From Candidatus Spongiisociaceae bacterium (lineage in GTDB: Bacteria; Actinomycetota; Acidimicrobiia; Spongiisociales; Spongiisociaceae), in NCBI GenBank assembly GCA_965262915.1, contig OZ253564.1, forward strand, positions 4,991,039-5,055,038: a stretch of 64,000 nucleotides of DNA, read 5' to 3'. How positions within the stretch are numbered: position 1 is the first letter of the stretch; every line of letters starts with the position of its first letter. Positions 4,624 to 7,725 of this stretch are shown here, piece after piece. A program made the position numbers and the translations under genes. The notes under the pieces are model-generated. The model saw only the letters and a list, made by a program, of their open reading frames with translations. It was not told where the DNA came from and ran no database searches.

Positions 4624-5025
4624 CGAGGTTTCTCTTGGACACCTCTGTGGTGTCCAAACTGACGAAAGACACGCCAGACTAGCAGGTGATCGAGTTCCTG
4701 GCTACTCATGACGACTTGTGGTTGTCATCGATCATGATACATGAGCTGGAGTACGGCCTGCATCTGCTTCCAGCCGGACACCGGCGCGATCGGCTTACAG
4801 CCATGATATCGGGCATCGTCTCGGCATATGCGGACCGCATCCTGTCATTGGACAGGACCGGCACAGAGTGGGCCGCCCGCCTCCGGGCATATGCACGCCG
4901 GTCCGGATACTCCATCGACCTGGGTCATGTACTTATCGCCGGAATAGCTCGCGCCAATAATCTGGCGATCGCGACGCGTAATGTCTCTGATTTCCGAGCT
5001 TTGGGTGTCCTAATCATCGACCCTG
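4620..5025 (+). pseudogene. vapC: VapC/PIN toxin with an in-frame TAG at 4680-4682; 3' end abuts ISL3
   Basis: FLLDTSVVS...*QVIEF...HELEYG...LIAGIA...ATRNVSDF...IIDP. Confidence 0.8.
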
Positions 5026-6344: not shown

Positions 6345-6520
6345 GTCCCCTGAGCCGGGTAGAGCGGCGGACAGAACACTCAAGGCGCAAAAGTCGAAGC
6401 TCCTATTAGGTCACCCCGCTCCCCGGTTCAGGAGTCCCAGCGGGGGCCAGGTCGACAGATCATGACAAAGGCACCAAAGGCCAGTTACGAGGTGAGTCAG
6501 ACCCGCCCCCGCCGAAGACC
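6345..6520 (-). ncRNA. Putative IS110 bridge RNA
   Basis: Two stem-enclosed loops: target guides CCTCGTAAC (6484-6492) and GTCATG (6461-6466); donor guides ATAGGAGCTTC (6396-6406) and TGAGTG (6377-6382); transcript ends approximate. Confidence 0.85.
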
Positions 6521-6525
6521 CGACC

Positions 6526-6531
6526 ATTATG
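6526..6531 (-). promoter_or_regulatory. -10 box (CATAAT) of the IS110 circle-junction promoter; -35 TTGCAC lies at 5087-5092
   Basis: Joining the ends gives TTGCAC-17 bp-CATAAT pointing into the bridge RNA. Confidence 0.75.
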
Positions 6532-6533
6532 AG

Positions 6534-7725
6534 TGTTACGAGGATTCCTCGGGCGGCGTAGTTGTCGTAGTTGGTGAACCCGTGGGCGACGCGGCGTAGG
6601 ACTTGGAGGAGGTTGTTGGTTCCTTCGATGGGTCCGTTAGTGGCTCGTCTGCTGGTGTGGTAGGCCAGGATTTGTTCTCCCCAGGCGATGATGGTGTCCA
6701 CAACTTGGTGGTATTGGGGTATCTGTCCGGTGGCGTAGAGGTCGGCGAACCGTCCGAGCGCCTGGTTAGCTTGATCCGGGTTGTCGGCTTCATACAGTTG
6801 GTAGAGCTCTTGGAGAGCGTCCCACGCGGTTCGCAGGACGTGGATGAGCGTCGAAGAGCCGGTCGAGATACTTCTGGTGGGCTTCGGTGAGGTGATCGGC
6901 TCGGCGTAAGAGGGTAAAGCGGGCTCGGAACAGGTCCGGCTCGAACGTTGGGGGACGCAGCTGGGGGTCCCGGCGTTGTATCTCTCGTCGTACCAGGGTG
7001 AGGCCTTGGGTGAACCAGCGGACGACGTGGAACCGGTCGAGCACATGGCGAGCATCGGGCAGATACTGTGCGATGGCTGCCTGGTAGGAGCGGGACCCGT
7101 CGGAGACGACTATCTCCACCTGGCGGCACCACCAGGCTCCTTGGTCTCTGAAGAACCTGGCCAAAGACCCTTTCGTGCGACCTGGGATCATCGCCAGGAC
7201 CTTGCCGCTGTCACCACAGGCCACCACGGTCACATACCGATGCCGGCGCCGGATCGATGTTTCGTCGACCAACAGCACACGACACGGCCGGGCCCGGCGA
7301 CGCTGCGCCACCCGCTCCGAGTGAGCTCTCACCAACCCCATGATCCGATGCCATCCCACCCCATGATGGCGGCCCACCGCCCGAATCGACATCACCGTTG
7401 CGTCGGCGACTAGACGACGGGCGAAACGGCGGGTCAACCCGGCTTGGAACTCGGCATGGTCCTCAAGGTGACGCTCCCCACAGTTTCCACATTCGAACCG
7501 GCGGCGACGTCACACCAACGTTGTGCGGCGTCCACTCACCTCCAAATCCCGAACCCTCTTTACCCTTCGGTCCCACACCCTGTAGCAGCGGAACCCACAA
7601 TGGCGGCACCTCGACCACTCCCGGGCCGATTCGACTTCAACCTCAAGACGCTCAACAGAGTCGACCCCCACTCTCATCACGCGAACACCCGACAGGTGCA
7701 GCCGTACTTGCATAACATCAGACAT
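6534..7725 (-). pseudogene. ISL3 transposase (TGA at 7510-7512, frameshift near 6840, stop codon displaced by IS110)
   Basis: CRHCG...CGNCG zinc ribbon, VDETS, VSDG, DRFHVV, TNGPIEGTNN...HGFTN. Confidence 0.85.

Follow-up and report, generated by a model that had tools for sequence, protein, structure and literature searches.

We describe an insertion sequence (IS) of the IS110 family that lies, on the minus strand, in a 64,000-nucleotide (nt) stretch of the genome of Candidatus Spongiisociaceae bacterium (contig OZ253564.1; this whole stretch is called the window below, and positions counted from its first letter carry the prefix w), where it is nested in the 3′ end of the transposase gene of another IS, a member of the ISL3 family. 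The element is very probably an intact IS110-group IS that carries a bridge (seek) RNA of ~178 nt in its left non-coding end, addressed to the end of the ISL3 transposase gene. At the level of sequence, this reading is carried by the anatomy of the element, the covariation of its guides with the flanking DNA, the covariation of the RNA stems, a promoter motif formed where the ends of the element are joined, and an exact target that was found only at ISL3 ends; the transcription and ends of the RNA, the positions of cleavage and the current activity of the element are predictions.

Alignment of 31 sibling copies places the ends of the element at (C)ACTCATA on the left (left end, LE) and TAGGAGCATC on the right (right end, RE), and the RE motif recurs with at most one mismatch at 30 of the 31 IS110 loci of this genome, the remaining locus having no detectable RE. 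On the minus strand, the left junction reads ...ATCCTCGTAAC|ACTCATAATGG, with the shared C at w6535, and the right junction ...TATAGGAGCATC|ATGACCCCC, with the shared C at w5073, between flanks that read …GGAATCCTCGTAAC and ATGACCCCCACACC…; on direct reading, the termini ACTCATA… and …GGAGCATC are not inverted repeats. The LE contains a 225-nt non-coding region (NCR; w6534-6310) that starts with ACTCATAATGG and precedes the recombinase gene, the product of which combines an N-terminal DEDD RuvC-like domain (PF01548, DEDD_Tnp_IS110; residues 15-160, E 4.3e-24, 85.5 bits against a cut-off of 29) with a C-terminal Tnp domain (PF02371, Transposase_20; E 3.6e-21) and is distantly related to the recombinases of IS621 (PDB 8wt6, E 5.1e-11) and ISCro4 (PDB 9t56, E 3.3e-11). 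The HMMER alignment to ISCro4 sets ...vqasSGrtv of the query opposite ...ryeSGssv, and we read the aligned Ser-Gly as the probable counterpart of S241-G242 of IS621 (PMC11208158). Compared with a relative in the genome G169, which belongs to the same genus, the recombinase is under purifying selection, with a dN/dS ratio of 0.35 at dS 0.34; the NCR, identical at 205 of 230 positions, is more conserved than the synonymous sites.

The NCR contains two stem-closed loops, a target-binding loop (TBL) with left and right target guides (LTG and RTG) and a donor-binding loop (DBL) with left and right donor guides (LDG and RDG) (Table 1). These four guides and their stems had been proposed in an earlier note made from the sequence alone, and all the strings, junctions and guides that it quoted are present on the minus strand at the places it gave. 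The GUCAUG of the RTG is complementary to C9 of the target followed by ATGAC (6/6) and, extended to GUCAUGA, to the right junction, TC followed by ATGAC (7/7), whereas the RDG extended by UU has the reverse complement AACACTCA, which is the left junction, that is, target positions 7-9 followed by ACTCA.

The strongest support for a guide function of these segments comes from the sibling elements. The genome, a single 5.06-Mb contig the relatives of which are Acidimicrobiia metagenome-assembled genomes (MAGs), holds the window copy as a single copy (the next-best copy is at most 80% identical in nt) among 31 IS110 loci with 68-77% protein identity to it. The siblings have in common the NCR scaffold GGGTCTGAC(C/T)CA-[9 nt]-TGGC…GCCTT-[variable]-GATCTGTCG…ATAGGAGC…TGAGTG, in which the bracketed stretches vary by lineage. 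When the 9-nt LTG and the five non-core RTG bases were scored against the flanks (maximum 14) for eight lineages, seven from this genome and one from a public MAG, the guides matched their own flanks in all eight (14, 14, 14, 13, 14, 14, 14 and 12 of 14), whereas the 56 cross-pairs of guides and flanks scored 6.0 on average and 10 of 14 at best. Among the 26 copies of the genome with a readable TBL, the LTG matches at 9/9 positions in 23, at 8/9 in two and at 5/9 in one; the remaining five of the 31 loci are disrupted or truncated at the 5′ end and have no readable TBL. The donor side covaries as well: an RE with GTAGGAGC goes with the LDG GUAGGAGC in the lineages g642, g2009 and L022, and an RE with TAGAAGC goes with the LDG UAGAAGC in L023.

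The site spelled by the target guides of the window copy is the end of the ISL3 transposase gene. The reading frame CTC GTA ACA TGA, proposed in the earlier note, was confirmed by tblastn and translation: the IS110 element is nested between the Thr codon ACA and the TGA stop, in the same orientation as the ISL3 gene, and leaves both ISL3 repeats untouched, the right one ending ~50 nt beyond the displaced stop codon. The interrupted ISL3 open reading frame (ORF) now continues into the IS110 element to w6411. The transposase belongs to PF01610 (DDE_Tnp_ISL3; E 3.2e-34) and has in addition a match to HTH_Tnp_ISL3 (E 1.2e-05) of 25.1 bits, below the 27.4 cut-off. The empty site reconstructed in the earlier note proved to be real DNA, in that the 14-nt target CCTCGTAACATGAC occurs exactly at two further sites of the genome (544683 and 689325), both of them 3′ ends of uninterrupted ISL3 copies; with at most one mismatch there are seven genome sites, with flanks that, judged by eye, are mostly ISL3-end-like.

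The left junction was sought in 29 genomes of the taxonomic family and was found in G000, G169 (exact) and G072 (one mismatch). In G169, an IS110 element 81% identical to the window copy in amino acids (aa) and 85.8% in nt occupies the same ISL3 codon; its LTG, CCUUGUAAC, matches at 8/9 positions and the right target bases at 4/5, and its ISL3 host has an intact ORF and stands in another chromosomal setting. In a tree of nine ISL3 copies, the occupied hosts are not sisters, the window host grouping with an unoccupied copy (support 0.997) and the G169 host with another (support 0.984), and because of this topology two separate insertions are favoured over a single inherited composite. One contig of the public run X2, from another study, also bridges this left junction, which is thin evidence.

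The minimum free energy (MFE) fold of w6332-6527 has an energy of -87.2 kcal/mol (z = -2.69), which was equalled in one of 200 shuffles, and it includes both of the closing stems, GGCGGGGGC/GCCCCCGCU and CCUGA.CCGGGGAGCGG/CCGCUC..CCCGG.UCAGG. For the covariation test, the two-loop structure was taken from the fold of the window copy and pairs were counted on an alignment of 16 distinct sequences: 79.8% of the alignment cells are paired, a proportion that falls to 51.8% or less if the 3′ partners are shifted by 1-3 columns; changes on both sides occur in 14 pairs, and the covariation score was equalled in none of 500 shuffles. The TBL stem (helix 1) is 89.3% paired over the 16 sequences, with six pairs altered on both sides. 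RNAalifold, applied to the raw alignment, additionally paired the CACTCA at the start of the LE with the RDG; since the transcript is predicted to begin downstream of the -10 box, we took this pairing to reflect the complementarity between guide and donor and not a fold of the RNA.

The -10 box of the LE would acquire a -35-like partner only when the two ends of the element are joined (Table 1). The circle junction assembled in silico reads TTTGCA-18-CATAAT and resembles a sigma-70 site at 9/12 positions, a likeness at the motif level only; a sigma-70-like site spans the junction in six of the eight lineages, that of the window copy among them, and occurs in none of the eight integrated contexts. 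A sigma-70-like promoter scan of the integrated locus (w5000-6800) yielded 0 sites, which we take only to mean that the -10 box is without a partner as long as the element is integrated.

Given these features, we propose the following cycle. By analogy with IS621, the element would excise as a circle, and the joining of RE to LE would build a promoter, with the -35 in the RE and the -10 in the LE, for transcription of the bridge RNA and the recombinase. In the DBL, LDG and RDG would hold the RE-LE junction, while the TBL would be addressed to the 14 nt at the end of the ISL3 transposase gene (…CTC GTA AC|A TGA), and the DEDD/Ser recombinase would swap the top strands just after the shared C. 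Because its address is the gene end, the element lands codirectionally in the interval that separates the ISL3 ORF from the right inverted repeat, sparing both ISL3 repeats and adding a C-terminal extension to the ISL3 ORF. The element belongs to an Acidimicrobiia clade of IS110 elements the guides of which have been naturally re-aimed at several ISL3 sites, namely the inverted repeats, a left subterminal site and the stop codon.

The register of the exchange can be set by comparison with IS621, for which the published accounts give an LTG of 9 nt, a CT core at positions 8-9 and cutting of the top strands after position 9 (Durrant et al., 2024, PMC11208160; Hiraizumi et al., 2024, PMC11208158). 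Read in this register, the present LTG, CCTCGTA-AC, has the shared C as its last base, which gives AC as the core of the target, a dinucleotide also seen in the two real empty sites, and TC as that of the donor (GGAGCA-TC). AC recurs at the left junction and TC at the right one, as expected of the top-strand products of exchange at these putative cleavage sites. The core dinucleotide is hence not identical in target and donor, which have only the C in common. The invariant GAU that follows the RTG pairs with the invariant A-TC of the donor, and the UU that follows the RDG pairs with target positions 7-8, so that the reverse complement of the extended RTG, ATCATGAC, is the right junction, just as that of the extended RDG is the left junction; this pairing resembles the published handshake guides (PMC11208158). 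The earlier note had taken CA, that is, positions 9-10, as the core. These bases are indeed common to target and donor in the window copy, but in the 16-copy family described below donor and target have C and G, respectively, at position 10 and share TC, and across the whole family the C alone is shared (one lineage has T there in its LTG); CA as a family feature was accordingly discarded as a coincidence of the window copy. The element is a member of the IS110 group of the IS110 family by its domains, the position of its NCR, the lack of terminal inverted repeats, its loops, the covariation of its guides and the promoter motif at its joined ends; that the core dinucleotide is not identical in target and donor is a difference in a detail of the site.

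Table 1. Features of the IS110 element, its predicted bridge RNA and its ISL3 host in the window
Feature	Position	Strand	Basis or remark
IS110-family element	w5073-6534	minus	1,462 bp, shared C counted once, at RE; ends from alignment of 31 sibling copies
IS110 recombinase gene	w5080-6309	minus	409 aa, intact; stop TAG inside left-donor sequence
Right end / left donor ATAGGAGCATC	w5073-5083	minus	
Predicted bridge RNA, ~178 nt	w6347-6524	minus	Just after -10 box to just after DBL closing stem; placement of RNA ends predicted
TBL closing stem, 5′ arm GGCGGGGGC	w6505-6513	minus	Pairs with w6447-6439
LTG CCUCGUAAC (DNA CCTCGTAAC)	w6484-6492	minus	9/9 identical to left flank w6543-6535
RTG GUCAUG + invariant A	w6460-6466	minus	
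TBL closing stem, 3′ arm GCCCCCGCU	w6439-6447	minus	Fold and covariation
DBL closing stem, 5′ arm CCUGAACCGGGGAGCGG	w6416-6432	minus	Pairs with w6367-6349; MFE fold
LDG AUAGGAGCUUC (DNA ATAGGAGCTTC)	w6396-6406	minus	10/11 against RE ATAGGAGCATC
RDG UGAGUG + two handshake-like bases UU	w6375-6382	minus	TGAGTG itself at w6382-6377; 6/6
DBL closing stem, 3′ arm CCGCUCUACCCGGCUCAGG	w6349-6367	minus	Fold and pair counting
-10 box CATAAT in LE	w6526-6531	minus	
-35-like TTTGCA in RE	w5088-5093	minus	18-nt spacer once ends are joined
Target left half, positions 1-9, CCTCGTAAC	w6535-6543	minus	Within ISL3 codons L-V-T
Target right half ATGAC	w5068-5072	minus	Holds displaced ISL3 stop TGA, w5071-5069
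Host ISL3, left part	w6535-7831	minus	Left inverted repeat near w7831; transposase from ATG w7725
Host ISL3, right tail with right inverted repeat (…CCCACGAAACCGCGCAGGG)	w5021-5072	minus	Inverted repeat read directly; terminus w5021

The association with ISL3 extends to the siblings: at 22 of the 31 IS110 loci, the distance to an ISL3 protein hit is no more than 100 nt, and these 22 comprise 16 copies of one family, five loci at ISL3-A ends and the window locus. The hosts of the 16-copy family form a second ISL3 subfamily, which shares ~33% aa identity with the ISL3 of the window; the IS110 copies lie at the 3′ ends of these hosts, always in the same orientation and 36-57 nt past the last aligned ISL3 residue (e.g., on contig C1, 274376-275853, 678725-677250 and 4978932-4977454). 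Its target, ACTGAAATC|GA(T/A)GAGCC, lies 8 bp inside the ISL3 terminus, and an exact, unsplit copy of this 21-nt ISL3 end remains at only one place in the genome (306090). Five loci adjoin ISL3-A ends by their RE; four of these represent the lineage g542, which sits in or at the inverted repeats (CGCGAAAAC|GTGGG) and includes two copies between which a single intact ISL3 is enclosed. The last of the five, at genome 2809550, resembles the lineage g2009 and lies at the left subterminal ISL3 site that this lineage targets; g2009 itself has a fragment of ISL3 DNA next to it. The suggestion in the earlier note that the element parasitizes ISL3 gains from these 22 loci, from the two empty targets at ISL3 ends and from the G169 relative at the same site of a non-sister ISL3. 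Nine of the 31 loci have no ISL3 neighbour by the 100-nt test.

It is possible, if short of probable, that this IS110 clade is a dedicated hyperparasite of ISL3, the guides of which have radiated to at least four addresses: the inverted repeats of one subfamily, the site 8 bp inside the right repeat of the second subfamily (16 copies), the left subterminal site and the stop codon. If so, the stop-codon lineage would use a 'safe' site, where insertion preserves the ORF as well as both repeats of ISL3, and could ride on ISL3 transposition and on read-through transcription, whereas the repeat-targeting lineages would split, and probably disable, the ends of their ISL3 hosts.

Several results count against the reading of the window copy as a functional, RNA-guided element. 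The host ISL3 ORF has one frameshift near w6837 (tblastn, two frames). The junction promoter of the window copy, at 9/12, is weak, and two of the eight lineages fail the criterion for such a promoter. In the DBL stem, helices 3 and 4 are only 62.5% and 71.3% paired, with eight pairs altered on both sides, values to which the poor alignment of the lineages in the region between the loops contributes in part. Rfam 15 covariance models, run permissively (E<=1) against w4000-9000, gave 0 matches, and two exact-pattern scans of Joint Genome Institute (JGI) metagenome contigs, one for the TBL with the window guides and one for the left junction, gave no further copy. In one sibling of the 16-copy type (genome 3664889; C1:3663632-3665109), the guides mismatch the flanks (LTG 5/9, RTG 1/5), which may reflect an off-target or half-match insertion or a later rearrangement. 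The window sequence is present, in whole or in part, in public sequencing runs that make up 20 rows from nine studies, 15 of them with half or more of its words, and four of these runs (X18, X16, X2 and X5) were examined. The true metatranscriptome among them, X18, has 0 contigs matching the window. In X16, for which the label RNA is a guess, a 220-nt contig covers w6347-6524 at a depth of 16.4, compared with 4.2 in the neighbouring contig; contigs cannot show RNA ends, and a break at 6347 is likewise seen in X5, the type of which is unrecorded; the X16 contig is therefore no evidence of an RNA end. Finally, the element is single-copy despite two perfect empty targets in the same genome, and current activity is for this reason unproven.

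Some of these results would be expected if the guide matches merely recorded one past insertion and the element were now immobile, its 'bridge RNA' being an unexpressed relic. The single genome copy, the two exact targets left unoccupied, the frameshifted host, the lack of a promoter-like site in the integrated state and the fact that no circle-junction or empty-site joints were reported from the four sequencing runs are all in line with such a fossil, which we nevertheless regard as rather unlikely: the 409-aa ORF is intact and has kept its low dN/dS, the NCR is more conserved than synonymous sites and the guides still match perfectly. For an integrated copy, moreover, silence is to be expected because IS621 as well shows weak bridge-RNA expression from integrated copies and inefficient excision (PMC13626964).

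The association with ISL3 would, in turn, say nothing about RNA-guided choice if one ancient insertion had created an ISL3::IS110 composite that was then spread by the ISL3 transposase or by descent. In G000 and G169, the composite indeed has different chromosomal neighbours and its two parts have diverged to a similar degree (81.7% nt identity for ISL3 and 85.8% for IS110), both ISL3 inverted repeats remain, and the ISL3 ORF of G169 is intact. This scenario seems improbable to us all the same, since the host ISL3 copies belong to different sublineages, each with an unoccupied closest relative, the guides match the site at 9/9 and 6/6 positions, which would be needless for a passive passenger, sibling lineages with different guides occupy different ISL3 sites, and in run X2 one contig, and one only, joins the RE to a different ISL3 tail. 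That the short matches between NCR and flanks arose by chance or as an artefact of terminal repeats, without any guiding role, is scarcely credible. In 20000 shuffles of the NCR of the window copy, with match positions unconstrained, a 9-nt identity to the left flank appeared in 64 and a 7-nt complement to the right junction in as many as 3844, which makes the latter weak evidence alone, whereas both matches appeared jointly in only 12. The evidence against chance from the window copy alone may thus be rated as moderate and that from the siblings as strong, given that the guides track their own flanks at fixed scaffold positions in 8/8 lineages and that the stems covary.

RNA-guided recombination by IS110 elements, with bridge or seek RNAs, has been in print since 2024, and the RNA itself is not new. 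In IS621, the bridge RNA, of 177 nt, is encoded in the LE, and its promoter forms anew when RE and LE are joined (Durrant et al., 2024; PMC11208160). The window element shares with IS621 the DEDD RuvC-like and Tnp domains, a bridge RNA located in the LE upstream of the recombinase gene, the two internal loops in the order LTG-RTG and then LDG-RDG, the 9-nt LTG and a promoter rebuilt at the RE-LE junction, with a predicted RNA of ~178 nt; the strand logic, in which left guides have the sense of the top strand and right guides are reverse complements, is also the same, in agreement with the IS621-type layout suggested in the earlier note (PMC11208160). The two differ in that the proteins are only distantly related (E 5.1e-11 over the Tnp domain) and are 409 aa long, with a weak HTH-like tail, in the present element as against 328 aa for the IS621 chain; the RTG is longer here (five non-core nt versus two); target and donor of IS621 have a CT core in place of AC and TC; and the target here is an ISL3 gene end, as opposed to a repetitive extragenic palindromic (REP) element, and the RNA has no Rfam match. 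ISEc21 and other IS110-type seekRNA elements likewise have the NCR upstream of tnp, with short stretches that match each target strand in the IS110-type order, and show natural re-direction by swapping of target-matching stretches between relatives (Siddiquee et al., 2024; PMC11187229). They come from another host phylum and have other targets, and the re-direction seen here involves seven lineages and an eighth in a second genome.

A precedent for an IS of the DEDD type aimed at another mobile element is reportedly provided by IS4321/IS5075, which insert in the repeats of Tn21; these are said to be of the IS1111 type, with the NCR downstream of tnp and subterminal inverted repeats, and to have a Tn3-family transposon as host. 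As in that case, the target here lies inside the end of another mobile element, and the g542 and 16-copy siblings likewise lie inside ISL3 inverted repeats; unlike that case, the elements are of the IS110 type, the hosts are ISL3 elements, and the window copy sits in the stop-codon region and not in an inverted repeat. Among the listed matches of a literature search, no paper concerned, by its title or abstract, the targeting of ISL3 by IS110 elements or bridge RNAs; the supplementary target tables of Durrant et al. may already list ISL3-type targets. The present set of elements constitutes a compact natural experiment, in which a 5-Mb genome contains seven sibling lineages (with the eighth in a second genome) that have one scaffold and different guides, each at the site its guides spell, with most of the sites on ISL3. 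These lineages offer ready-made orthogonal pairs of guides and targets from a high-GC actinobacterial lineage, and a family in which the crossover is surrounded by positions (8 and 10) that differ between donor and target, a point relevant to the rules for cores and handshake guides. They also present a case of one IS specialising on another, with possible consequences for ISL3 mobility.

With respect to the ISL3 host and its surroundings, the inverted repeats, read from the sequence, are GGCTGCGCGG…GTGGGGTGGG and CCCTGCGCGG…GTGGGGTAGGG, and the terminus at w5021 is consistent with the point of divergence at another locus and with a loose end of a sequencing run at 5021. No direct repeats flanking this ISL3 copy were found on reading the sequence. 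On one side, the ISL3 is bounded by a fragment of an rve_2 integrase (w7444-8022, plus strand; E 2.7e-06), and on the other, a 140-aa ORF (w4686-5105, plus strand) without a Pfam family crosses the ISL3 tail into the right end of the IS110 element; an initial PIN/VapC reading of this ORF was dropped, as Pfam gave no family. The region thus looks like a patchwork of IS fragments, in keeping with the lack of direct repeats.

Elsewhere in the genome, the segment C1:541943-546193 contains an intact ISL3 with the exact empty target, flanked by two inverted copies of the other IS110 lineage with the LTG CGCGAAAAC, one in or at each inverted repeat. The ISL3 3′ end at C1:272725 (minus strand) has the sequence CCTCGTAAC-ATC-ATGACCC, which is three bases longer at the insertion point, and the contig of run X2 already mentioned joins the IS110 RE to this same tail (loose end w5071; one contig); this could be a second insertion site or the footprint of an excision. 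Three IS110 copies (C1 near 3638543-3640028, 4420451-4421936 and upstream of 288880) are interrupted by ~1.5 kb exactly at the TAGGAGC that codes for the LDG. At the locus 4018494, the same end of the ~1.5-kb insert is joined via …GGAGCAT to an ISL3 tail 100% identical over 52 nt to that of the window, and the inserted DNA follows what, by eye, appears to be the 3′ end of an IS3-type transposase. This locus may be the remnant of a second occupancy or a duplicate of the window locus, and was left uncounted.

In the C-terminal tail of the recombinase (w5083-6309, minus strand), residues ~354-388 give weak matches to HTH_31 and HTH_3 (E 1e-4 and 1.6e-4), both below the Pfam cut-offs. The nearest lineage in the MAG G072 adjoins sequence that, judged by eye, reads as an IS3-type transposase. 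In the same MAG (G072:C1:1562038-1562310; also L003-L005), a 51-nt unit that extends from the start of the LE to the end of the LTG is present six times in tandem; apparently, a resident copy has received successive insertions of its own lineage within the DNA that codes for the LTG, a stretch that mimics the left half of the lineage's target. Half-match recombination is reported for IS621 and may, by analogy, explain both these self-insertions and the one sibling with mismatched guides.

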